Positions 7,371 through 43,117 of a DNA stretch of 43,117 bases are shown here, piece by piece (the first letter of the stretch is position 1; the number at the start of each line of letters is the position of its first letter). The DNA is taken from positions 10,011 to 53,127 of the forward strand of contig CAZJVC010000001.1 in the NCBI GenBank assembly GCA_964549515.1, read 5' to 3'. The stretch comes from an uncultured Pseudomonadota bacterium (GTDB taxonomy: Bacteria; Babelota; Babeliae; Babelales; UBA12409). A program made the translations under genes and the position numbers. The notes under the pieces are model-generated. The model did not search any database. It saw nothing but the letters and a program-made list of their open reading frames with translations, and was not told the DNA's origin.

Positions 7371-9710
7371 TTATCCCTGCTCAATCACGCGCACCAAACT
7401 GCCAAGCGCCGTTTTTTCAATAAAGAAATGAACCGGAAACTGATCCTTCATCGTAGATAAATGTGAAACAACAATAATCTTCGCAAAATCATCCTGAATC
7501 TTATACAAAGCATCCATGATAAGGGAAAGCCCATCTTCATCTTGTGAACCAAACCCCTCATCAATGATCAACGTTTGCAATGATGCCCCCGCACGACGTG
7601 CTAAAAGCTTCGAGATTGCAATGCGCAGTGCAAAGTCGATGCGAAACGCCTCTCCACCAGAAAAAAGCTCATACGGGCGAATTCCTGCGTTATCTGATAT
7701 TTTAATATCAAGCGTCTCTCGTGTGCCGCCTTTTTTTAAATCACGTACAGATTCAATCATAATTTGAGCATTCTGATCACTTAGCTGTGCAAGAAGCTTA
7801 TTAGCCTCTTCCTCTATCTCCGGAATGACCGACTCAATAAGTAATGCTTGAATACCATCCTTACCTAACGCCTCGCTGATTACTTTATATTCTGCAATTT
7901 CACTCTCAAGGGACTTTTTTGTCACTTCGTACTTTTTTCGTTCTATAGATAACTTTTGGATACGAAGCTGCTCATGCTCCAAGCGCGTTTTTTGCTGCAA
8001 TAACTGATTTCCTTTTTCAGTATGTTGAAGCATAAGTTGCTGAATCTCTATCTCGCGCTCTTTAAACTCTGTCTCTTTTTGATCAAATGAAACGTTCTTT
8101 TTGAATTGCGCTAAGTCTTGTTCGGCAATCTGTCGTTGCGTTAACAATTTTTTATATTGTATATCCTGCTCAAGCTCATTTTGTTGCTTGTTTTTCAATT
8201 CTTGCAATTTTTGCTGCACAACATACGCCTGTTCTTTTAATCTTTTTTTTGTCTCTTCAGATTGGGTCAAAACTTTAACATGCTTTTCAAACTCTGTGTG
8301 TATGATAAAAGAACGCACAGAAATATCTTTATACTGAGATTCAACAGTAATAATATGCTGCACTTCTTTTTCCAGCTCTTTTATGCGGCCATGCTCAAGC
8401 ATCAACAAATCTTTAGATTCCTGAACAAATAACTTAATACGCCTAAGACGATGCTGATAAAAAGATACTTTTTTTTTCAATGTATATTTAAGTTGTTCTC
8501 TGGTTTTACCAGAAAGTGACTGCTCACATAATGGACATACACTATCTTTGCATGAACTCGCTTGCTTCTCATGATCAAGCACAATACGCAATTCACGATC
8601 AACTAAATTACCATTCCCAATCATACGTTGATACACATCTTTGCGTCTTTCAAAAAGTTCTCGCGCTGCAACATGCGACTTTGTTATTTGATCTTTTCTT
8701 GCAAGCTCTTTTTCATAATTCGTTAAAACCTTACGAATACTCTTAAATTCATCATCTAATGTTTTTTTCTGTTTCTCGATATATGAATGCCGTTCTTCTG
8801 CTGCCTGACATTGTGAAAGTAATCTTGCCCCCAAAACCTCTTGCTCTTTATGTACCTGTGTACATTTTAACTCATAGGCATGATTATACACTTGAAGCTT
8901 TTCACCATTTTGAGCACACACACGCTCTAACAAATAAATTTTCTCTTTGTGTGAATATAACTCATCACGGTCCTTTTGCACTTCTTTTTGTTTAACGACT
9001 AATGCAGCAGCCTCTTCTTTAAGAACCACCTCTTCATGCTCCAAGCTCCCTAACGTTTCTTCTAATGTTTTGAGCTCATCAACCTCTTCATTCAATAGCT
9101 CAAGCAATTGCTTAAGGCCATCACGCTTGCTGGCGCGCTCTCGTATTTTTTCTAGCACCACTTTACGAATGCGCTCATAATAATCTAATCCTAAAATCAG
9201 CGCTAAAATCTCTTTTCTTTCTCGCGCTGATTTTTTAGAAAACTCATTTGCTTGCCCCTGACGTAAAAATACAGAATTCGCAAAAGTCTCGAAATTAAGC
9301 CCTACAATCTCTTCAATTTTTTGTTGCGTTGCGCGAATTGTCTTCTCTGTTAGCGGCTTAAGTTTTTTTTCACTTTGATCATACAGACCAAATTCCAGCG
9401 TAGATCGTGCTTTTGAGCCACATAAAACAAGCTCCCGGTAAACACTGTATCGTTCGCCTTGGCACAAAAAATCAAATTGAACCGACATTTTATCATTGCC
9501 AAGCCGAATAAGAGCTTCATCAGCACGCGAAACACCACTTACCTTGCGCGCATGCCCCCATACTGACCACGTTATTGCATCAAGAAGTGCTGATTTCCCG
9601 TGCCCATTTTTTCCAGATAGGCACATAAGCGTATACGGTTCAAAATTTATCAACTGTTCTGTGTCGCCATAACTTAAAAAATTTCGTATCTTGAGTTGAA
9701 TTGGAATCAT
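7371..9710 (-). CDS. sbcC: SbcC-family DNA repair exonuclease ATPase subunit of the SMC/Rad50 type (779 aa).
   Basis: The N-terminus has a Walker A motif (LSGKNGHGKSALLDAITWSVWG), followed by a long coiled coil. There is a central CPLC zinc hook, and the C-terminus has a Walker B/D-loop (LIIDEGFGSQDEDG). Confidence 0.85.
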   Translation of the reverse strand: MIPIQLKIRNFLSYGDTEQLINFEPYTLMCLSGKNGHGKSALLDAITWSVWGHARKVSGVSRADEALIRLGNDKMSVQFDFLCQGERYSVYRELVLCGSKARSTLEFGLYDQSEKKLKPLTEKTIRATQQKIEEIVGLNFETFANSVFLRQGQANEFSKKSARERKEILALILGLDYYERIRKVVLEKIRERASKRDGLKQLLELLNEEVDELKTLEETLGSLEHEEVVLKEEAAALVVKQKEVQKDRDELYSHKEKIYLLERVCAQNGEKLQVYNHAYELKCTQVHKEQEVLGARLLSQCQAAEERHSYIEKQKKTLDDEFKSIRKVLTNYEKELARKDQITKSHVAARELFERRKDVYQRMIGNGNLVDRELRIVLDHEKQASSCKDSVCPLCEQSLSGKTREQLKYTLKKKVSFYQHRLRRIKLFVQESKDLLMLEHGRIKELEKEVQHIITVESQYKDISVRSFIIHTEFEKHVKVLTQSEETKKRLKEQAYVVQQKLQELKNKQQNELEQDIQYKKLLTQRQIAEQDLAQFKKNVSFDQKETEFKEREIEIQQLMLQHTEKGNQLLQQKTRLEHEQLRIQKLSIERKKYEVTKKSLESEIAEYKVISEALGKDGIQALLIESVIPEIEEEANKLLAQLSDQNAQIMIESVRDLKKGGTRETLDIKISDNAGIRPYELFSGGEAFRIDFALRIAISKLLARRAGASLQTLIIDEGFGSQDEDGLSLIMDALYKIQDDFAKIIVVSHLSTMKDQFPVHFFIEKTALGSLVRVIEQG

Positions 9711-31045: not shown

Positions 31046-32236
31046 CTAATCTATAATTTCAATAACAACACCAGACCCAACAGTTCGTCCACCTTCACGA
31101 ATCGCAAAACGTAGATCTTTTTCCATAGCAATTGGAGCAACAAGATCTACTACTAATTCAACATTATCACCAGGCATAACCATTTCACGACCCTCAGGTA
31201 AAAACACGTTACCGGTTACATCCGTTGTTCTAAAATAAAACTGTGGACGATATCCGGAGAAAAATGGACTGTGACGGCCACCTTCATCTTTTCTCAAAAT
31301 ATAAACTTGGCACTTGAATTTTCCGTGAGGTGTAATTGAACCTGGAGCGGCAACAACCATACCACGCTCAATATCTTCTTTTTTTACACCACGAAGGAGC
31401 AAGCCAACATTGTCACCAGCCAGGCCTTCGCCAAGTTCCTTGCGGAACATTTCAACGCCTGTTACCGTTGTTTTGATAGTTTTACCAAAACCAATAACTG
31501 CAACTTCTCCGCCAACTTTAACTTTACCACGATCAACTCTACCAGTTGCTACCGTACCACGACCAGAAATTGAGAAAACACTTTCTATAGGCATCAAAAA
31601 TGGCTTGTCAATTTCACGTTCTGGAACTGGAATGTAGTTATCAACTGCATCAAGTAATTTTTTAATAGATACTGAACCGATCTCGCTGGTATCACCTTCA
31701 AGAGCCTTCAATGCTGAGCCACGAATGATAGGAATCTCATCTCCAGGAAAATCGTACTTCTTAAGAAGATCCCTGAGCTCTTCTTCAACCATATCAATCA
31801 TTTCTGGATCATCAACCATATCAACTTTATTAAGATATACAACGATTGATGGAACGTTAACATTCTTTGCCAACAAAATATGTTCACGCGTTTGAGGCAT
31901 TGCGCCATCAGCCGCAGAAACAACCAAAATGGCACCATCCATCTGAGCTGCGCCTGTAATCATATTTTTAATGTAGTCAGCATGGCCAGGACAGTCAACG
32001 TGCGCATAGTGGCGCTTATCTGTATCATATTCTACGTGAGACGTTGCAATAGTAATACCACGTTCTTTTTCTTCTGGTGCATTATCAATTTCATCAAATG
32101 CGCGCTTTTCAGCTTTGCCTTCACCAGCCAAAACACTGGTAATGGCGGCTGTTAGCGTTGTCTTACCATGATCAACGTGACCGATGGTACCTATATTAAC
32201 GTGCTCTTTATCACGTTTGAATTGCTCTTTGGCCAT
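31046..32236 (-). CDS. tuf: Elongation factor Tu.
   Basis: It has [18 protein letters not shown] and NKVD GTPase motifs over 396 aa. Confidence 0.98.
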
Positions 32237-35489: not shown

Positions 35490-36599
35490 ATGACAAGTGC
35501 ATTACTTTACCAACTAAAGGGCCTCATATTCATCGCTATCGGCCTTTTTGGAATAGGTTTCCTGGTTGGATTTCACGAGTTCGGTCATTTCATTTTTGCC
35601 AAAGTTTTTGGCGTGCGTGTACCATCATTTTCAATCGGCATGGGTCCTAAAATTTTTTCGAAAAAAATTGGTGAAACTGAATTCAAACTTTCAGCCATTC
35701 CGATTGGTGGTTATGTCGAAATTGCTGGCCTAGCCGAAATTGGCCAGGGAGAACAAAAAGAAGCACAGATAACCAATTCAGGAAGCTTTCAAACCAAGCC
35801 ATACTGGCAAAAATTCTTGATCATGAGCGGAGGCATTATCTTTAACTTTGTTTTAGCTCTAGTCATCTTCTTCGGACTCTTTGCTACTGGCATGCCAAAA
35901 TCTCTACTCTCATACCCAGAAGAAGTTAAACCAATCATAGTCAAAACACAAAAAGACAGTCTTGCAGAAAAAATCGGCTTACAATCAGGCGACACAATCC
36001 TCGCCATCGATAATCAAAAAACTGAAAATGTTCTTCAAGTTATTGCTCAGATACAGGAAAATAAAAATAAAACGGTTAGCATTACCATAAATCGCGCTGG
36101 CAGAGAACTATCCTTGAAGGCTCTTCTCGATTTTTCAGGCCGTTTCGGCCTTGATTATAGAATTGATTATCTTACTCCATTCTCTTTTACTGCAAGCGTT
36201 AAAAATGCATGGAATATGACCTTAAATGTCACAAAAAAAACATTTGATGTCTTCATTAACCTTTTCAAAAAACGCACCACCGATGGCGTTGCAGGCCCAC
36301 TTCTCATCATCTCTCAGATGGTACAAAACGCAAAACAGGGAGCGTCTATCTTCCTGCTTTTACTCGCATTCATCAGCATTAATCTGGCAATTATCAACCT
36401 GATTCCACTCCCAGTCACCGATGGTGGACAAATTGTCTTTATAACAATCGAAGCCATCATTAAACGCCAGATTCCAGAAAACATACGGCTCATCATCCAC
36501 AATATTAGCTGGGTACTTATTTTGGCCCTTGCAACCTATCTTACAATTAAGGACTCAATCGCGCTCTTCTGGCCAACAATAAAAAATTTCTTCATGTAA
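35490..36599 (+). CDS. rseP: RIP metalloprotease RseP (site-2 protease of the M50 family) with one PDZ domain.
   Basis: It has the HEFGHFIFAK HExxH motif, a PDZ (GLQSGDTILAIDNQ) and a C-terminal LDGG motif. Confidence 0.9.
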   Translation: MTSALLYQLKGLIFIAIGLFGIGFLVGFHEFGHFIFAKVFGVRVPSFSIGMGPKIFSKKIGETEFKLSAIPIGGYVEIAGLAEIGQGEQKEAQITNSGSFQTKPYWQKFLIMSGGIIFNFVLALVIFFGLFATGMPKSLLSYPEEVKPIIVKTQKDSLAEKIGLQSGDTILAIDNQKTENVLQVIAQIQENKNKTVSITINRAGRELSLKALLDFSGRFGLDYRIDYLTPFSFTASVKNAWNMTLNVTKKTFDVFINLFKKRTTDGVAGPLLIISQMVQNAKQGASIFLLLLAFISINLAIINLIPLPVTDGGQIVFITIEAIIKRQIPENIRLIIHNISWVLILALATYLTIKDSIALFWPTIKNFFM

Positions 36600-36605
36600 A
36601 AACAG

Positions 36606-36642
36606 GCTAAGACTGTTCAGGATTATCCTGAACAGTCTTAGC
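36606..36642. repeat. Perfect 16-bp-arm palindrome built around a CAGG-ATTAT-CCTG module, lying immediately 3' of rseP.
   Basis: The sequence is gctaagactgttcagg attat cctgaacagtcttagc. It is probably a stem-loop that acts as a transcript-end or stabiliser element for rseP, but no T-run follows it. Confidence 0.8.
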
Positions 36643-36654
36643 ATAAACAGATCC

Positions 36655-36689
36655 AAAAAAAGACCGGCATATTCTTTGATATGCCGGTC
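36655..36689 (-). terminator. Rho-independent terminator serving the minus strand.
   Basis: On the minus strand an 11-bp stem (gaccggcatat/atatgccggtc) is followed by T7. It lies downstream of the flavoprotein remnant. Confidence 0.6.
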
Positions 36690-36844
36690 GAGTAGTAATT
36701 TTACCATATCTAATTATCTATAATCCGAAGATGATAAATAACTAAAACGCTAACCACCACTACTCAATAATCAGTATACAGAAATTTACAAATAGAAAAC
36801 AAGCTTTTGTACAAAAAAGTTTAAACTTTTTTCAATCCAAGCAT

Positions 36845-37030
<186 letters not shown>

Positions 37031-37065
37031 TTATTCAATTCTATAACTTGCGGTTTTTTTTCTTC

Positions 37066-37305
37066 GTTCATCCTGCCGTGCCCGCCCCTTCGTCAAGCTC
37101 AGGGTAAACTACATCCTGAGTAGCACAAAGTGCGTATCGAAGGGTCCGCTCATCCTGCCCTTCGACAGGCTCAGGATAAAATTGTATCGAAGGACGCTCA
37201 TCCTGCCTATCCGCCATAGCTTTAGCGACGGCTGGGAGTGATTTGCGAAGCAAATTGTATCGAAGGACGAAAATACTCAGGATAAACTCTGGGTGCGAGC
37301 GAATT
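37066..37305. repeat. GC-rich dispersed repeat element (copy 3) with an internal, degenerate tandem structure.
   Basis: It contains gtatcgaagg x3, ctcaggataaa x3 and cgctcatcctgcc x3, and shares segments with 1-80 and 5461-5590. Its GC content is far above the surrounding sequence. Confidence 0.75.
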
Positions 37306-37592
37306 TGAATATTCTTCACGGAATTTTTAAACTGTGATGTCTATATTTGTGTGAAACTTAAAAAGCTTGCTATAAATATTATAATTTTAGTATAAAAAAC
37401 GTGTAGAAAATTACAAGACGAGTTTGCAACCTCGTCTCAAAGGAGAACGCATGTAATGGAAGTAGCCAGATTTAAAACGTTTATTAATCTTTTCAAAAAA
37501 AAGGAAATTATGAAAATTCAATCTGCTCAGAAAATAACTAGTGAAACAGAAAAAAGCATAACGGACATAGATAAAAAATAGAACAACTTAAA

Positions 37593-37937
37593 ATGCAGCT
37601 AGCGCAACTCGAAAAAGAAAAAGATCTTAAACAACTTAAAGAACAACATGTACTTGAAAAACAAAATATAGTACAAACCCAAGAACTAATTAAAAAGCAG
37701 GTAGCAAATCTAACCGAACATAATCACCAAATAGAACAATTATACAAAGAACTGCAAAAGCTAGAAGGACAAAAACAAGAGCTAGAAAAAGATCTTAAAA
37801 AAACAAAGGATGGCCTTGAACAACAATATAGACAAATCAAAAAACTAGGGGAACAAATCGAAAAAGCGGAAATGGACCTAAGCTCCGAATTAGCAAAGGT
37901 CGAATCTAAAACAGTTAGCCACCAAAAAACACCCTAA
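37593..37937 (+). CDS. Coiled-coil protein rich in Q, E and K. The 5' part is probably out of frame (see the frameshift finding), and the true start is possibly 37510.
   Basis: The ORF has no strong ribosome-binding site at 37593. An AAGGA site precedes an ATG at 37510 that encodes the same coiled-coil style until an A6 run. Confidence 0.5.
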   Translation: MQLAQLEKEKDLKQLKEQHVLEKQNIVQTQELIKKQVANLTEHNHQIEQLYKELQKLEGQKQELEKDLKKTKDGLEQQYRQIKKLGEQIEKAEMDLSSELAKVESKTVSHQKTP

Positions 37938-38266
37938 ACCAATCCTTTTTAAATAAAAAAAGCTCCATTTTCACTATGAAAATGGAGCTTTTTTATAATA
38001 AACCTTTATATTTACCAAATTGGATCTATACGTTGTTTCGCCATTGCGTGAAGCCCTTGTACGGCCCGCATACTGACATGATCAATAGCTTTATTTTTCT
38101 CAACAACCCCTTCAATTCAACTCCAAAAAAGAATTTAAGAAAAACTATTGCAATTTATATTTAAACCAGCTTAAAATATAAGTATATATTCTAAAAAGTC
38201 ATTTTCAAGGGGGGGGCGATTAAATACAGATACATTACCGAACGTATTAAATAAAATGGAGAAGAG

Positions 38267-38626
38267 ATGGTTAAAATAACAAAAAATAATTATGTTGCCG
38301 AAATTATTAAGAGCAACGTACCCGTCATCGTTAATGCAGGCGCTTACTGGTGTAAGGCATGCAAAAAAATGAAACCAATTTTAGGTGATCTTGAAAAAAA
38401 ATATAAGGGTGAGATCAAATTTGTTTACCTCGATACCGTAAACACAACTATCAAGTTTTGTAAGAAATTTGGCCTCAGATTTGGCGGACCCCCACCTAAT
38501 TGCTCTGGAAGCAAAATTCCACAAGCAATTTTTGTTAAAAAAGGCATGATGTTAAAAAGAGTAATCGGTTTTAAAAATACAAAAGACCTTTCAGTTGAAA
38601 TTGACAACTTTATAGCAAAAGCATAA
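38267..38626 (+). CDS. Thioredoxin with a WCKAC active site.
   Basis: It has the thioredoxin-fold pattern: a CxxC motif at the expected position and a downstream GGPP (cis-Pro region). Confidence 0.7.
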   Translation: MVKITKNNYVAEIIKSNVPVIVNAGAYWCKACKKMKPILGDLEKKYKGEIKFVYLDTVNTTIKFCKKFGLRFGGPPPNCSGSKIPQAIFVKKGMMLKRVIGFKNTKDLSVEIDNFIAKA

Positions 38627-38656
38627 AAACCAAGGCTAAGAACTGGATTTCGGATC

Positions 38657-38923
38657 TTACTCTACCAGTTTCTTAGCCTTTATAATTAGCTCAGCCGTTT
38701 TTTTACGCAATCTTGCAATTAGACGGAAACTTTGGCATTCCAAGTTTTCTTCGTCATAATCTTCACAAGAAAGAAGCTCATCTACCTCTTTCTTCAACAT
38801 CTCAGCATATTTTACTTTTTCCCGAATATCTTTCGCCTTATTAATCTTATCGGTCAAATCCTTTATTATTGGTTCTTTTTCTCGAAACTTTAAGCAACAC
38901 TTTTCTGTTTTCTTTTCTTCCAT
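38657..38923 (-). CDS. Hypothetical small charged protein (88 aa).
   Basis: This is an ORF only. It is K/E-rich with CC and C..C residues, and lies convergent to the thioredoxin gene. Confidence 0.35.
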   Translation of the reverse strand: MEEKKTEKCCLKFREKEPIIKDLTDKINKAKDIREKVKYAEMLKKEVDELLSCEDYDEENLECQSFRLIARLRKKTAELIIKAKKLVE

Positions 38924-39036
38924 TATTTAACCCTTAATCTCAATCTGATAATTTCTTTTCGTTAGGTTAATAGACATAATTGCCCCTCATCACATAAAAT
39001 ATTTAACGAGACCTATCACATAATTTAAGTATATTT

Positions 39037-39456
39037 TTAAATCCCTAAAGTCGTTAGCTTAAATTCTGAAGAATATTTTGTATCAGTTATCCCGTCCCCG
39101 GGTTTCTGTGACACAAATTGAGCCATCTTCATTGAAAGATCGTCTTTCGTTATCGACTTATACACTCTTTCTACCATGATGCCATCTTTAATAAAAATCA
39201 GAGCTGGAACACGAACTTTAAAACCGCGCCTGACGCCCCATCTTTCAGCAATTTTATATTCCCGATCAACATTAAGTATAGCAAATTTGACTTCTTGATT
39301 TCGCTTTTTGATATATTCTTCCTCGATCCTCTCCAAAATCCCTTTCATTTTACGACATGATTTACTCCAGCTAGCCTCAGCTAGAACAACAATCGGAATC
39401 TCCGTAGCAATTTCTTGCTTAAGGTTCCTACTTGTTAATCCAACAAACATAACCAT
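39037..39456 (-). CDS. Thioredoxin-fold protein with a degenerate active site (WSKSC, i.e. SxxC), a monothiol type.
   Basis: The pattern ...VVLAEASWSKSCRKM...VPALIFIKDG... matches the thioredoxin fold, but the first Cys is replaced by Ser. Confidence 0.55.
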   Translation of the reverse strand: MVMFVGLTSRNLKQEIATEIPIVVLAEASWSKSCRKMKGILERIEEEYIKKRNQEVKFAILNVDREYKIAERWGVRRGFKVRVPALIFIKDGIMVERVYKSITKDDLSMKMAQFVSQKPGDGITDTKYSSEFKLTTLGI

Positions 39457-39486
39457 CTCCTTTACATAGAAAAAATAAACGAATAT

Positions 39487-40116
39487 CTACTTTGGGATTC
39501 TTAACGCCAGTATCTGGTTCTGAAATTTCTGGCTAAATTTAGAACCACAAACTTCAACTGGCAAACGTATTTCTTCACTTTGTTCATGGCCTTTTGAATC
39601 CTTAAACACAATACTTACTCTTTTCTCTTGCGCATAAACTTTAATATTTTCTTCTCGCACACCTAGAAGTTCCATGATTATTACCATTTCATGATCTTCA
39701 TCAAAAATATCTATAGGCAGCGCCTTTTTTTTCAATGTCTCAATTGATTGTTTCCACTTCTCAGGATTTCGCACTGCGATAAAAAGCCGCTTGAGGATAA
39801 TCCTGTTGTGCAAATTATTAGTCCAATTATTAGTCCAAAAAAGATTAAGTTGAGGCACCTTCTTACCAAAAATCCATTTTCTTTTTACTATCTCCATCGC
39901 CTGAATATCGCGCAGAAAAAATGCAAATTTAACTTTTTTCACTTGCACAAAAAGAAGCCTCTTATTGGTAAGATACAAAAGACCAGGCCTCCAGACAGAA
40001 AAGAGTGAACCTACATCGTAAGAAGCAGTATAATAAAATATAACCCTCTCCCCTCTCATCAAAGGGAACGGGATTGGTCTTTCTATAAGATCTAATGTAT
40101 ATTTCCTATATCTCAT
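39487..40116 (-). CDS. Two-domain protein with an N-terminal bacterial PH-like (bPH_2-type) domain and a C-terminal truncated alpha-crystallin/Hsp20-like domain (GvpH-like).
   Basis: The N-terminal region has RPGLLYLTNKRLLFVQ (G.L.LTN.RL.F). The C-terminal region, LGVREENIKVYAQEKRVSIVFKD...IRLPVEVCGSKFSQKFQNQILALRIPK, matches the ACD pattern (LPGV..EDI.V......L.I...LP....F...F.NG.L.I..PK). It is paralogous to 40106-40648. Confidence 0.5.
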   Translation of the reverse strand: MRYRKYTLDLIERPIPFPLMRGERVIFYYTASYDVGSLFSVWRPGLLYLTNKRLLFVQVKKVKFAFFLRDIQAMEIVKRKWIFGKKVPQLNLFWTNNWTNNLHNRIILKRLFIAVRNPEKWKQSIETLKKKALPIDIFDEDHEMVIIMELLGVREENIKVYAQEKRVSIVFKDSKGHEQSEEIRLPVEVCGSKFSQKFQNQILALRIPK

Positions 40117-40648
40117 TTTTTGGTATCTTTATTGTAAGCATTTGATTTTGAAACTTCCGACTAAATTCTGAAGTGCAAACCCGTCTAGGCAAATTTATTT
40201 CTTCACCTTGCTCAATGCCTTCTCTATCTTTAAATAAAATATTTAGCGTTTTCTCTTGAACGTCAATCTTGATATCTTCTTCTTGCACACCTGGAAGCCC
40301 TACAATTATTACTGTCTCTTTGGCTTCCTCAAAAACATCTACCAGTAATCCTACAGATATCTTTGCTTCTTCACTTCTTTTTTCGGTTAACCACCAACTA
40401 AACAAAACTTTTTCGCCAGTTTGAACATCAATATGCAACTTTTCAAATACTAGTATCGGCTTTCTTAGAATTTTTAAGGCTCGCGCGTTTATAACATCCT
40501 TAATTCTCATCAAGCTATTCATATCGCTGGATTCACCAAAAATCTCTGTTAGCTCATCAAGCCTTGCATGCCTATGTTCCAGGAGATGTGAAATTGCATT
40601 ACGGCTCCTTAAATCTAATTCATTGAGAAGTCGCTCAAGGTTGGCCAT
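40106..40648 (-). CDS. Hsp20/alpha-crystallin-like (GvpH-like) protein with an N-terminal helical domain of unknown function.
   Basis: The C-terminus, IIVGLPGVQEEDIKIDVQEKTLNILFKD...INLPRRVCTSEFSRKFQNQMLTIKIPK, has the ACD pattern and is paralogous to the preceding gene. Confidence 0.5.
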   Translation of the reverse strand: MANLERLLNELDLRSRNAISHLLEHRHARLDELTEIFGESSDMNSLMRIKDVINARALKILRKPILVFEKLHIDVQTGEKVLFSWWLTEKRSEEAKISVGLLVDVFEEAKETVIIVGLPGVQEEDIKIDVQEKTLNILFKDREGIEQGEEINLPRRVCTSEFSRKFQNQMLTIKIPKNEI

Positions 40649-40947
40649 TATACTAACTCAGGAGAAATTTTTTTCTTCCGATGCTCTGTTTCCCAAGCCC
40701 TGGTTTCCTCATCCCAAGCCTGCATTACCCCATATTTAAGCATAGTCTCCATCCCAGCCAATGCTGCACGCAAGTTAATACCAATTAAAGGAACTCCGGC
40801 AACCGAGATAATAATATCAGCATTAATTACCAAGCCCTTATCTAAAGCCCGATCTAATAAGTCTACCAAGGTTGCTTGTGTGGTTCTCTCAAATTCACCA
40901 TCGAGCGGCTCTGTGACAACAGATTTCATTTTTACACCTTTATACAA
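40648..40947 (-). CDS. Gas vesicle structural protein family member (GvpA/J/M-like).
   Basis: LVDLLDRALDKGLVINADIIISVAGVPLIGINLRAALAGMETMLKYG matches the GvpA-family core (L.D..DR.LDKG.V...D...S..G.EL..I..R...AS.ET...Y). An alternative start lies at 40929. Confidence 0.75.
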   Translation of the reverse strand: MYKGVKMKSVVTEPLDGEFERTTQATLVDLLDRALDKGLVINADIIISVAGVPLIGINLRAALAGMETMLKYGVMQAWDEETRAWETEHRKKKISPELV

Positions 40948-41710
40948 AACTATACGGCGCCCAAGGGCCAGTAAAACGAACAGAAAACTCTTCTAAATGG
41001 TCAATTTTTATGAGCTCTCTGCTCAATATCTTAATATTCTCTTTAGGAAGCAAGCAAGAAAAATTTAGCAACATCTGCTTATCAACCACAGGCTTTTTTG
41101 TTCTTTCAACTTTAATTTCATCTACACATTTTTTAATTCTGTCATAAAAATCTTTGAAACAGCTCGTTGCTTTCTCTTCTATTTTCTTTCGCAAAAGTTT
41201 CTCAAGTTTTTGCTTATACATATAAGCTAAGCCGCGAGATTTAGACTTTATCTCTTCATTTAACTTATTAATCTCAGAATCATTTTCTATCAAGCGCTCC
41301 CCAACCAACTTAGGAAACCAAAAAATCTGAATGCCATACTCAGCTTTGCCTTTAACTTTAGTCAATTTCTGTTTCAAATTTTCATAATCATCATGTATCC
41401 AGCGCTTCAAATTTTCCTTAGCTTCAATCCCTTCTTCACCTTTAATTATTGTACTAAAACCTAAAGGTAAAATTGTGCCAAATCTTTGCCAGGCGGCATC
41501 GATAGTTTTTTGATGAGCTATTATCCACTTTGTTACTATCTTGTCATTTTCAGATTTATAGAAAGTTATGGGAGAATCATGAACTATAGCACATAGGTCT
41601 TGATAAGCAATAGTATAAACTTTATTTTCATCAACCCCCATATTGCCAAAATTTATTTTTTCATTTCCTTCCGCTAGACAGTAAAGATATAAGCCATTTG
41701 CCATTTTCAA
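40940..41710 (-). CDS. Gas vesicle protein of the GvpF/GvpL family.
   Basis: The N-terminus GLYLYCLAEG...VYTIAYQDLCAIVHD and the C-terminus FTGPWAPYSFV are both characteristic of GvpF/L. It is translationally coupled to its neighbours by 4-8 nt overlaps. Confidence 0.8.
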   Translation of the reverse strand: MKMANGLYLYCLAEGNEKINFGNMGVDENKVYTIAYQDLCAIVHDSPITFYKSENDKIVTKWIIAHQKTIDAAWQRFGTILPLGFSTIIKGEEGIEAKENLKRWIHDDYENLKQKLTKVKGKAEYGIQIFWFPKLVGERLIENDSEINKLNEEIKSKSRGLAYMYKQKLEKLLRKKIEEKATSCFKDFYDRIKKCVDEIKVERTKKPVVDKQMLLNFSCLLPKENIKILSRELIKIDHLEEFSVRFTGPWAPYSFV

Positions 41711-42030
41711 ATTTCCTTTTGCTTAGCTTTTCTTTCCCGTTCAGTAGGATTTATCATTTTATTTAAGACATCATCCACAATACTATCAAGCCCATCTCTT
41801 ACCGATTTGACCGACTCAGTAACACCTTGCTCTTTTTTTATCTCCTCAACAGCCAAATCTAAATCCATAAGAGCTTCACCCAACCTGTCTATCTCCTCTT
41901 CAGTTAGATTTCCACTTTCCATCCGCTTCATTGCTTGAATATTAAGTGTCTCTTTAATAATTTCTACCAAGGATATAACAAGGCCCAAGACGCCGTGTTT
42001 CAGATTCTTTTCGTCAATATCTATAGGCAT
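41707..42030 (-). CDS. Gas vesicle protein GvpK.
   Basis: GVLGLVISLVEIIKETLNIQAMKRMESGNLTEEEIDRLGEALMDLDLAVEEIK matches the GvpK consensus (LVLTLVELLRQL.E.QAIRR.E.G.LT.EE.ERLG..LM.LE). Confidence 0.75.
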   Translation of the reverse strand: MPIDIDEKNLKHGVLGLVISLVEIIKETLNIQAMKRMESGNLTEEEIDRLGEALMDLDLAVEEIKKEQGVTESVKSVRDGLDSIVDDVLNKMINPTERERKAKQKEI

Positions 42031-42041
42031 TGCTAGCTCTC

Positions 42042-42491
42042 TTAGATTTTAAGATTTGTTATCTTAAACCCTGTATATTCTTGCCCTACAGAACCTTTAT
42101 CAATTGAAAGATCTTCCTCTCTTTCAGCTGACAGTTTTCGAGCAGGTACAACACGCACCGGATCCTCGTAAACGTTTCTAAAAATATCCGCTTTGTTTAT
42201 CTCATCCCTTATCTGCTGCATCACTTTTGTTTTGGCTTTCTGATTAAGCGCCTTGAATCTGCACGTATTTAGTTTTAAATTTCGTTTTGCCACTTTCTGC
42301 GTTTCTCTCTCGGCAAATTCACGCAGTTCTTCTTTATCTCTTTCATTCAGAATTGGGCCGCCAAATAGCTTCTGAAGGCCACTTTCCAGCTCCGTCGCCG
42401 ACGATACAACAAGGCCCATTGGGCTCTTACGTTTTCTTACAACATCCAAACCACTTCTTAGATCATTAACTGTACTAAATTTTTTCTTCAT
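42042..42491 (-). CDS. Hypothetical protein within the gvp-like operon. It could be an accessory Gvp such as GvpG or GvpO, but this is unresolved.
   Basis: It sits between the GvpA-like and GvpK genes on the same strand with short spacers. It is charged with a helical E/K/R-rich centre, and there is no confident motif match. Confidence 0.4.
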   Translation of the reverse strand: MKKKFSTVNDLRSGLDVVRKRKSPMGLVVSSATELESGLQKLFGGPILNERDKEELREFAERETQKVAKRNLKLNTCRFKALNQKAKTKVMQQIRDEINKADIFRNVYEDPVRVVPARKLSAEREEDLSIDKGSVGQEYTGFKITNLKI

Positions 42492-42510
42492 ACTCGTTCT
42501 CTAGGTTATC

Positions 42511-42864
42511 CTAAATTACCTGTTTTTGCTCTATTTTTACCTTAGCACTTTGCCAGCCACACCATTTACAACCTTCATTTAGCAGCTCGTCAACCACCGC
42601 CCTTTTACCACATTGGGGGCATTCCTCTTTATTTTTTGTTGCCTCCTTCCATGCATCAGTTTGTGTATTAACACTCGATGGAAATTCTAACCCATACCGC
42701 GCCGCTGTTTCAAAAGAAGCAAGAGCCGCCCTAATTTTAATTCCCAAAAGCTCGACTCCGGCAACGGACACCGTGATATCAGCATTGATTACCAATCCCT
42801 TATCTAGAACTCTATCGATAAGGTCAGCCAAACCACCCGCCTCTTTCTTCTCGTCTAATTCCAT
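42511..42864 (-). CDS. GvpA/GvpJ-family gas vesicle structural protein with a C-terminal Cys4 extension that looks like a zinc ribbon.
   Basis: LADLIDRVLDKGLVINADITVSVAGVELLGIKIRAALASFETAARYG aligns almost position for position with the GvpA core. The extra C-terminal roughly 55 aa contain CPQC...CKWC. Confidence 0.8.
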   Translation of the reverse strand: MELDEKKEAGGLADLIDRVLDKGLVINADITVSVAGVELLGIKIRAALASFETAARYGLEFPSSVNTQTDAWKEATKNKEECPQCGKRAVVDELLNEGCKWCGWQSAKVKIEQKQVI

Positions 42865-43117
42865 GTTTCCTCAAATCTCTCGTGCCAAATTTTAACGAAC
42901 CAATGAATCTCATACTACAAAGATTCTTGGTCCATAACTCCTATCTGAGAAAAGTATATATCAAATTCCATCATTTGGAAACGCTTCTAGCTTGATTCAA
43001 TAGCTGCACGTCCTCACAAGTTTTCCAGTTTTTTATCCTTGCTCTTTTTCTTCGCTAAAAAGTAAATATTAGTGCAGTATCCGTATTCTGTTAAATCCAA
43101 GTACACCATTGCAATTC

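Follow-up and report, generated by a model that had tools for sequence, protein, structure and literature searches.

A GvpJ-type gas-vesicle protein with a conserved Cys4 zinc-ribbon-like tail

What purpose does a tail of metal-binding type serve on a gas-vesicle shell protein? The question is raised by an open reading frame (ORF) of 117 amino acids (aa) at 42511..42864 (minus strand) of a 43,117-nucleotide (nt) stretch of DNA from an uncultured bacterium (contig CAZJVC010000001.1; the whole stretch is called the window below). An initial annotation had described the product as a GvpA-family, rib-forming shell protein and had offered three functions for its cysteine-bearing C-terminal extension: cross-linking, redox sensing or the docking of partner proteins. 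Here we show that the protein is a GvpJ orthologue—a minor, nucleation-associated GvpA-like shell protein of a complete gas-vesicle (gvp) cluster—and that GvpJ with a zinc-ribbon-type tail is present in at least 80 bacterial and archaeal species. Gas-vesicle nucleation is the main open question for this organelle (PMC9994262, PMC10903477), with GvpJ and GvpM as the prime candidates for nucleation factors, and we regard the zinc-ribbon GvpJ as a useful experimental handle on nucleation rather than as a new principle.

The coding sequence runs from an ATG (42862-42864), which follows a Shine–Dalgarno-like GAGGA read from the sequence (42868..42872, minus strand) at a distance of 3 nt, to a TAG (42511-42513), and its translation is MELDEKKEAGGLADLIDRVLDKGLVINADITVSVAGVELLGIKIRAALASFETAARYGLEFPSSVNTQTDAWKEATKNKEECPQCGKRAVVDELLNEGCKWCGWQSAKVKIEQKQVI. 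Residues 1-59 comprise a hydrophobic GvpA-type α-β-β-α core, and residues 60-117 a linker, a predicted two-knuckle Cys4 ribbon (CPxC-x13-CxWC-GW) and a short basic helix. Pfam PF00741 (Gas_vesicle) covers residues 12-49 at 63 bits, well above its gathering cut-off of 25. The GvpA-fold core proper (residues 10-59; 42688..42837, minus strand) was delimited by AlphaFold2 (AF2) secondary structure and by alignment to the GvpA structures 8gbs and 7r1c in the Protein Data Bank (PDB); with moderate model confidence, it is predicted to consist of helix 12-22, strands 24-35 and 38-49, and helix 51-57, and it contains the J/M-type motifs RAALA (45-49) and RYGL (56-59). Alignment and AF2 together place behind it the conserved linker EFPSxxNxxTxAWKEA (residues 60-79; 42628..42687, minus strand), with a short helix at 70-76, and the Cys4 zinc-ribbon-like module (residues 80-106; 42547..42627, minus strand), in which CPQC and CKWC are followed by G103 and W104; the basic C-terminal helix (residues 107-117, AKVKIEQKQVI; 42514..42546, minus strand) was predicted by AF2 at 107-116. 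The protein has exactly four cysteines, C82, C85, C99 and C102, all in the tail, and CPQC (42610-42621) and CKWC (42559-42570) are separated by 13 residues, confirming the CxxC-x13-CxxC spacing first reported for it.

Several lines of evidence assign this protein to GvpJ. Its NCBIfam scores are 93.4 bits for GvpJ, 55.4 for GvpM and 54.0 for GvpA, the last of which fails the 100-bit cut-off of the GvpA model NF006874. The RAAxA and YGL motifs are confined to GvpJ and GvpM (Jost and Pfeifer, PMC8716928). On Halobacterium plasmids, the best tblastn match is the annotated gvpJ, with only residues 7-82 or 7-68 aligning. A sequence search of the PDB matched the core to GvpA structures only (Anabaena GvpA 8gbs, 46 bits, E = 6e-11, with residues 4-58 aligned, and likewise 7r1c), and a GvpJ structure was not found. 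GvpA shares the fold family of the core, measures 70-88 aa and forms the ribs. A canonical GvpA is encoded on the same contig, 8.2 kb upstream and beyond the window edge: the window ends 253 nt upstream of gvpJ, its reverse complement corresponds to locus L001 from position 9055 on with 0 mismatches over 10,607 nt, and L001 861-1085 encodes a 74-aa protein that scores 126 bits on NF006874 and 99 bits against 8gbs. By size and position, GvpA is a protein of about 70-90 aa encoded ahead of gvpN; it is this 74-aa protein that precedes gvpN, whereas the protein at 42511..42864 has 117 aa, 57 of them in the tail. We further scanned one genome per GTDB species, confirming at least 493 relatives, and compared the best 80 loci (64 bacterial, 16 archaeal). 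The gene order G-O-J-(x)-K-L-M is kept in the window cluster and in these 80 loci, and gvpK, gvpL and a gvpM-like gene accompany gvpJ in all 36 related loci that are fully flanked.

Because the GvpJ model fits best, the motifs are of J/M type, the gene order is that of gvpJ and a canonical GvpA is encoded separately on the contig, the protein is not the rib-forming shell protein that it was first taken for. Membership of the GvpA superfamily stands, as the Pfam match attests; identity as GvpA itself is ruled out by 54 bits against a cut-off of 100 and by the true GvpA upstream. The comparison with a GvpA of about 70 aa, on which the tail had seemed long, used the wrong yardstick, since GvpJ C termini are normally long and cluster-specific (PMC8716928). 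A tail of this length is thus not unusual for GvpJ; what is unusual, as had been suspected, is its metal-binding-type fold, together with its high conservation. We consider the GvpJ identity and the architecture, taken jointly, to be very probably correct.

The conservation of the tail was assessed in proteins and in loci. A search of 5.8 billion proteins returned 3,519 matches, of which the best 120 (113-172 aa, 62-92% identical) were examined; all 120 have CxxC-x13-CxxC. The spacing is exactly 13 in 80 of the 80 loci, with CPQC (76) or CPEC (4) as the first knuckle and CPWC (79) or CHWC (1) as the second, relative to which the CKWC of the window GvpJ is a rare variant. In an alignment of 119 sequences, C82, P83, C85, C99, W101, C102, G103 and W104 are invariant, as are F61 and P62 of the linker; W72 of the linker (at least 90%) and S106, A107 and K108 are nearly so. 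Mean identity to the window GvpJ across the 80 loci is 88% for the core, 58% for the linker and 67% for the ribbon. Over the same loci, median identity is 72.5% for whole GvpJ, 69.4% for GvpA and 66.3% for GvpK, the GvpJ value being inflated by the choice of loci by GvpJ similarity; as judged from these sequences, and within loci so chosen, zinc-ribbon GvpJ appears at least as conserved as GvpA.

Carriers among the best 80 loci span both domains. The bacteria include Bacteroidota, Chloroflexota, Actinomycetota, Bacillota, Thermotogota, Desulfobacterota, Nitrospirota, Planctomycetota (Scalindua) and Atribacterota, as well as Ignavibacteria, Omnitrophota, Acidobacteria, Nitrospinae and Patescibacteria, and the archaea include Bathyarchaeia, ANME-1, Methanothrix, Thermoplasmata and Nitrosotalea. 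In the cultured Methanothrix thermoacetophila PT, the 126-aa protein A0B598 (ABK13872.1, annotated 'GVPa') has CPQC-x13-CPWC; the gvp clusters of this archaeon are expressed and gas vesicles are formed (PMC10470525). Other cultured carriers are Natronococcus occultus SP4 and many Streptomyces of the rochei group. The tail is not universal: of 44 plasmid records that give a Gas_vesicle-like match, only 3 encode it.

These data also bear on whether the 117-aa protein might be the main rib-forming GvpA after all, with metal tails that cross-link the ribs, or a product of misassembly or of a frameshift that fused two ORFs. The Pfam match and the absence of a 70-aa GvpA inside the window could be read in that way, but the GvpA score and the upstream GvpA tell against the former. 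The identical 117-aa protein is indexed in 35 blocks of a contig collection (24 contigs read), with the same locus in four independent assemblies, and the architecture recurs in all 120 best homologues and 80 best loci, which rules out a frameshift or fusion artefact. This explanation is already refuted, and we assign it practically no probability. A frameshift fusion and an unconserved cysteine spacing were the two outcomes named beforehand as fatal to the claim of a Cys4 zinc-ribbon-like extension behind a Gas_vesicle core; neither occurred, and the extension proved to be conserved in every homologue examined when relatives were aligned. Among the homologues, a 172-aa protein from an ENA metagenome (P0031) has the whole linker and zinc-ribbon tail tandemly duplicated.

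What fold does the tail adopt? An AF2 run on the full-length protein with the 119-sequence alignment predicted a GvpA fold for the core and, in the tail, the order helix 70-76, strand 79-81, knuckle 1, strand 88-90, helix 91-96, knuckle 2 and helix 107-116. A tail-only run yielded the same topology, with predicted local distance difference test scores (pLDDT) of 75-77 over the ribbon (72-77 across both runs). The predicted topology would resemble that of generic two-knuckle Cys4 ribbons such as eL43/L37ae, RNA polymerase subunit P, the AccD N terminus, Zn_ribbon_8 and DUF7560, which likewise have CPxCG-type knuckles 13 residues apart and a predicted hairpin-knuckle arrangement; unlike them, the module described here has an invariant tryptophan in knuckle 2, GW directly after it and LL in the inter-knuckle helix, and it reaches no family threshold. 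Many generic zinc-ribbon Pfam families (DUF7560, Zn_ribbon_8, HypA, Zn_ribbon_3 and others) each give a weak match in 30-40 of 44 tails. On these predicted models, a Cys4 zinc-ribbon fold is well motivated but not proven.

The module is not confined to GvpJ. When the tail alone was run with phmmer against 1.84 billion representatives, 69 matches were obtained, all of which were inspected for fusion context, with the common motif ETCPxCG...ELLxxGCxxCGW followed by S-P/A and basic residues. The module occurs on GvpJ cores, on GvpM-like cores that are short or are long with PH/GRAM domains, on PH/GRAM-only proteins and, repeated two or three times in tandem, in small proteins. Across the 80 loci, half of the GvpM-like ORFs (32 of 64) encode long proteins of 240-394 aa with the same ribbon at the C terminus, and a tandem-ribbon mini-protein directly follows gvpJ in 17 loci (for example, L008 2036-2401, L011 10675-11088 and L016 10388-10729). 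A second, divergent GvpJ paralogue, also ribbon-bearing, is found in 4 Bathyarchaeia loci. Ribbons per cluster number one in 38 loci, two in 27, three in 6 and four in 9, and the window cluster has one. Judged by sequence, the invariant tryptophan, the GW and the inter-knuckle LL appear to define a distinct ribbon module restricted to gvp clusters.

In the long GvpM-like proteins, a Gas_vesicle core is joined to one or two PH/GRAM-like domains and to the C-terminal ribbon (for example, in L010, L012, L014 and L026, and in P0166 and P0188). The tandem-ribbon mini-proteins (94-165 aa) contain two copies of CPxCGRxVVxxELxxKGCYxCGW and group as a separate family among the tail-only matches (P0125, P0129, P0131 and others).

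A ribosomal-protein-like zinc ribbon with a basic helix could instead bind RNA or DNA, for example in autoregulation of gvp messenger RNA, an idea encouraged by the weak matches to eL43/L37ae, topoisomerase, TFIIE and RNA polymerase subunit P ribbons and by the lysine-rich C terminus. All such matches are sub-threshold, however, and stem from the generic knuckle pattern; the core at the N terminus is of a kind that inserts into the shell; the 69 tail matches place the module on gas-vesicle proteins and PH/GRAM domains only, never on nucleic-acid enzymes; and an Rfam search of the region gave no RNA family. We consider nucleic-acid binding to be highly improbable.

We propose instead that the tail is a docking element. 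The GvpJ core would insert into the nascent cone, with the tail on its cytoplasmic face, and the four cysteines would bind one structural metal ion, probably zinc. Around this ion, a stretch of about 27 residues would fold into a rigid knob that exposes its invariant tryptophans, and this knob would dock and hold early assembly factors encoded next to gvpJ, for which GvpK, GvpL, GvpM, GvpG, Hsp20-type GvpH-like proteins or other copies of the ribbon module are candidates. Zinc-ribbon GvpJ as a metal-stabilized docking knob on the cytoplasmic face of the nascent cone is the best explanation as a whole, and one that we hold to be rather more probable than its alternatives combined.

The placement of the window GvpJ in the cone, with its tail outside, is inferred by analogy because GvpJ and GvpS of Bacillus megaterium are found in bicones with termini that can be reached from outside. 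Both are urea-resistant, integral bicone components with SpyTag accessible on their ends (PMC10327013) and, more broadly, GvpJ, GvpM and GvpS are absent from the cylinder wall and integral to the bicones, with outside-accessible termini (PMC10903477, PMC10327013). Among the three functions first suggested for the tail, docking of partners seems the most plausible, again by analogy: in Halobacterium, the C-terminal half of GvpJ (J47-114) is essential and binds GvpG, GvpH and GvpL, and deletion of 5 aa from its C terminus abolishes vesicles (PMC8716928). The role that we propose for the ribbon matches the one shown for this unrelated, cysteine-free half.

The docked partner could also be another ribbon. 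The ribbons of neighbouring GvpJ molecules, and of GvpM, would then bind each other, cluster at the cone apex and close or stabilize it where the GvpA ribs stop. Such a self-associating cap is consistent with the clusters that have up to four ribbon modules, with the tandem-ribbon proteins, with the duplicated tail of P0031, with the presence of GvpJ and GvpS in bicones and with the C-terminal domain of Halobacterium GvpC, which has a zinc-finger motif and interacts with itself (PMC9372576). The single-chain AF2 models lend it no structural support, however, and it overlaps with the docking knob, the partner being the protein itself. We judge it to be unlikely as a separate explanation.

Several points weigh against the docking knob and the assignments on which it builds. 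The docking role of the zinc-ribbon tail rests on analogy, and we regard that role, taken by itself, as evenly poised. GvpK, GvpL and GvpM accompany every kind of GvpJ, such that co-occurrence singles out no partner of the ribbon. Pairing of ribbons between different proteins is not a general mechanism, because the window cluster has a single ribbon. Because homologues were chosen on their similarity to the query over its full length, the sets show that the architecture is widespread, not that every GvpJ has the tail. The protein misses the 125-bit cut-off of the curated GvpJ model NF046090, a miss of limited weight as this is an 'exception' model specific to haloarchaea and covering haloarchaeal GvpJ only. 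As to the fold, the AF2 models are only moderately confident (mean pLDDT of 63.8 for the full-length model and 67 for the tail-only model), no tail among the 44 reaches a Pfam zinc-ribbon cut-off, and searches of the tail with Pfam and NCBIfam return sub-threshold generic ribbons only. The structure prediction suggested in the initial annotation therefore gave a divided answer: the hairpin-knuckle topology appears in both AF2 runs, but Foldseek found nothing significant in the PDB for either the full-length or the tail-only model, the top neighbours of the tail—all zinc ribbons, namely the AccD N terminus, eL43 and the Nup153 zinc finger—reaching E = 0.3 at best.

Redox sensing, another of the functions first suggested, would make the tail an oxygen or redox switch: a labile zinc or iron Cys4 centre whose oxidation unfolds the tail and blocks nucleation until thioredoxins reset it. 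Anaerobes make up most of the carriers (Dehalococcoidia, Bathyarchaeia, methanogens, sulfate reducers, ANME-1 and Atribacterota), and in this genome a thioredoxin-fold gene follows the gvp cluster on the same strand with another nearby. Yet homologues of both genes are missing from all 80 related gvp loci, and no thioredoxin gene is present at L087, the locus of the close relative P0003; the 139-aa thioredoxin-like protein next to the cluster is monothiol, with WSKSC; the module is also found in aerobes, Streptomyces and the haloarchaeon Natronococcus; and CPxCG-type knuckles are typical of structural zinc ribbons. A redox switch is, in our estimate, quite improbable. A conserved thioredoxin linkage, to which the initial annotation had drawn attention, is ruled out by its absence from all 80 loci, one of the two genes moreover encoding SxxC rather than CxxC (the other has WCKAC); the proximity looks lineage-specific. 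The two thioredoxin-fold genes (38267-38626, plus strand, and 39037-39456, minus strand) flank an 88-aa, cysteine-containing ORF (38657-38923), weak homologues of which (88-229 aa) occur in four of the 80 loci (L028, L030, L037 and L067).

More speculatively, CPxC-x13-CxxC-GW could be a dedicated, metal-dependent assembly code of a large class of gvp clusters, marking GvpJ, GvpM, PH/GRAM proteins and tandem-ribbon adaptors for one receptor, with nucleation gated by metal or by the redox state of the Cys4 site; we hold this to be distinctly unlikely.

How does the zinc-ribbon GvpJ relate to the gas-vesicle proteins that have been characterized? GvpJ of the Halobacterium salinarum p-vac cluster (114 aa) likewise has a Gas_vesicle core with RAAIA and EYGL-type motifs and a hydrophilic C-terminal half; its core is 48-55% identical to that of the window GvpJ (tblastn), and gvpJ directly precedes gvpK-L-M there, the window order being J, a gene for a 149-aa protein, K, L, M. 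Its tail, in contrast, is cluster-specific and poorly conserved, and the whole Halobacterium protein lacks cysteine, whereas the window-type tail is a Cys4 ribbon that remains about 67% identical between phyla of both bacteria and archaea. Like the window GvpJ, the GvpJ and GvpS proteins of Bacillus megaterium and GvpJ of Anabaena flos-aquae are minor GvpA homologues, and neither system has been described with a metal site. The B. megaterium GvpJ ends in a cysteine-free coiled segment. The A. flos-aquae protein ends in six 21-aa repeats (PMC10903477).

The only zinc motif on a gas-vesicle protein that we found in the literature is the zinc-finger motif of GvpC. The haloarchaeal GvpC C-terminal domain can be likened, by description, to the window tail, being a small globular domain on the outer surface that engages in protein–protein (self) interaction (PMC9372576); it sits on a helical-repeat protein of the outer surface, whereas the ribbon sits on a protein of the shell fold. 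A tblastn search of a plasmid collection with the tail matched six records only, none from Halobacterium, and did not match gvpC of the Halobacterium plasmids. A description of a Cys4 or zinc-ribbon tail on GvpJ was not found in a literature search from which subscription journals were mostly excluded, so that its absence is no proof, and a 2024 structural review that lists atypical GvpJ C termini does not mention a zinc-ribbon tail. The variant is apparently undescribed. The proteins themselves are already in public databases, under names that are generic or wrong ('gas vesicle protein', 'GVPa', 'ribosomal protein L37AE/L43A' and 'HypA'), and annotation would gain from a correct name. Being small, strictly conserved, rigid and probably dependent on metal, the tail would offer ligands that can be mutated singly, a defined bait for partners and, for engineered vesicles, an exposed site that lends itself naturally to fusions.

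In the window, gvpJ is followed on the minus strand by a gene for a 149-aa protein without a Pfam or NCBIfam match (42042..42491, placed by synteny), distant homologues of which take the corresponding place in L010 and L087 (the P0003 locus), with one more, also distant, at another point of the cluster in L072. Next are gvpK (41707..42030, minus strand; Pfam GvpK, 66.8 bits), gvpL (40940..41710, minus strand; Pfam GvpL_GvpF, 204 bits; NCBIfam GvpL, 185 bits) and a second Gas_vesicle paralogue (40648..40947, minus strand) that is gvpM-like, its best NCBIfam match being GvpM at 92.8 bits, and short, without a zinc ribbon. Two alpha-crystallin genes end the cluster: a GvpH-like Hsp20/alpha-crystallin-domain protein (40106..40648, minus strand; Pfam and NCBIfam) and a 209-aa protein (39487..40116, minus strand) in which a PH/GRAM-like domain is fused to an alpha-crystallin domain (NCBIfam Hsp20, 49 bits; faint bPH_3 and Vps36). 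GvpM thus being short here, the PH/GRAM-like domain is found on the alpha-crystallin protein instead, and the N-terminal motif of the latter, WRPGLLYLTNKRL, is common to GRAM-zinc-ribbon proteins from the tail-only search. Together with the upstream Hsp20 in L001, the cluster has three proteins of small-heat-shock type.

Upstream, L001 reads GvpA (74 aa), two unknown proteins, GvpN, Hsp20, a CDC48-like AAA+ ATPase, a GvpF/L-DnaJ fusion, GvpF/L, GvpG, GvpO, a gap and gvpJ; L001 3642-7337 encodes Hsp20, then a CDC48/VAT-like double AAA+ ATPase of 718 aa, then GvpF/L fused to a DnaJ J-domain. Discussion of a CDC48-like ATPase as a part of gvp clusters was not found in the literature. This cluster type—zinc-ribbon GvpJ with, as a rule, a CDC48-like AAA+ ATPase and several proteins of Hsp20 type, and often a GvpF-DnaJ fusion—is shared by many anaerobes that are uncultured and by at least one archaeon in culture that forms vesicles, Methanothrix thermoacetophila. 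A strict tie of zinc-ribbon GvpJ to the ATPase was rejected, the latter occurring in 28 of the 36 loci that are fully flanked and being missing from the cassettes of Streptomyces and Natronococcus. The gap between gvpO and gvpJ is unusually long, at about 590 nt, and non-coding (window 42865-43117; L001 8715-9307), which suggests a separate gvpJ-K-L-M transcription unit, as in Halobacterium. A promoter and terminator scan of the gap was not informative, with 5 promoter-like sites against 2.6 +/- 1.8 expected from shuffled sequence, and the Rfam search, covering 36500-43117 with the gap part 42865-43117 included, gave no match.

Much smaller cassettes are found on plasmids. Plasmid 2 of Natronococcus occultus SP4 (L089 8962-11529) has a minimal set of zinc-ribbon GvpJ, a hypothetical protein, GvpK, GvpL and a GvpM-like protein, and a plasmid of Streptomyces sp. 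SGAir0924 (L090 8977-11570) has zinc-ribbon GvpJ, a GvpM-like protein (303 aa, with PH/GRAM-like domains), GvpK and GvpL/F. Within 9 kb of either cassette, gvpA, gvpN, gvpF and gvpG are not annotated. It is conceivable, though unlikely, that J(Zn)-K-L-M cassettes standing alone in this way give rise to something different from a classical gas vesicle. The Prokaryotic Genome Annotation Pipeline (PGAP) calls the GvpM-like gene of these cassettes 'gvpJ' and the real zinc-ribbon GvpJ just 'gas vesicle protein'.

The host of the cluster is a Dependentiae (TM6) bacterium, as judged from its elongation factor Tu (31046-32236, minus strand), which is 91% identical to that of TM6 GW2011_GWE2_36_25 and whose named top matches all belong to Dependentiae or Babeliales. 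A gas-vesicle cluster in Dependentiae was not found in the literature. To our knowledge, members of this phylum are known only as intracellular symbionts of protists, and buoyancy organelles in them are for that reason unexpected. The complete cluster, of about 12 kb (39487-43117 and L001 861-12685), adjoins the str/S10 ribosomal operons, with the same junction in four independent assemblies, and its G+C content of 37.7% differs little from the 39.4% of the remaining window.

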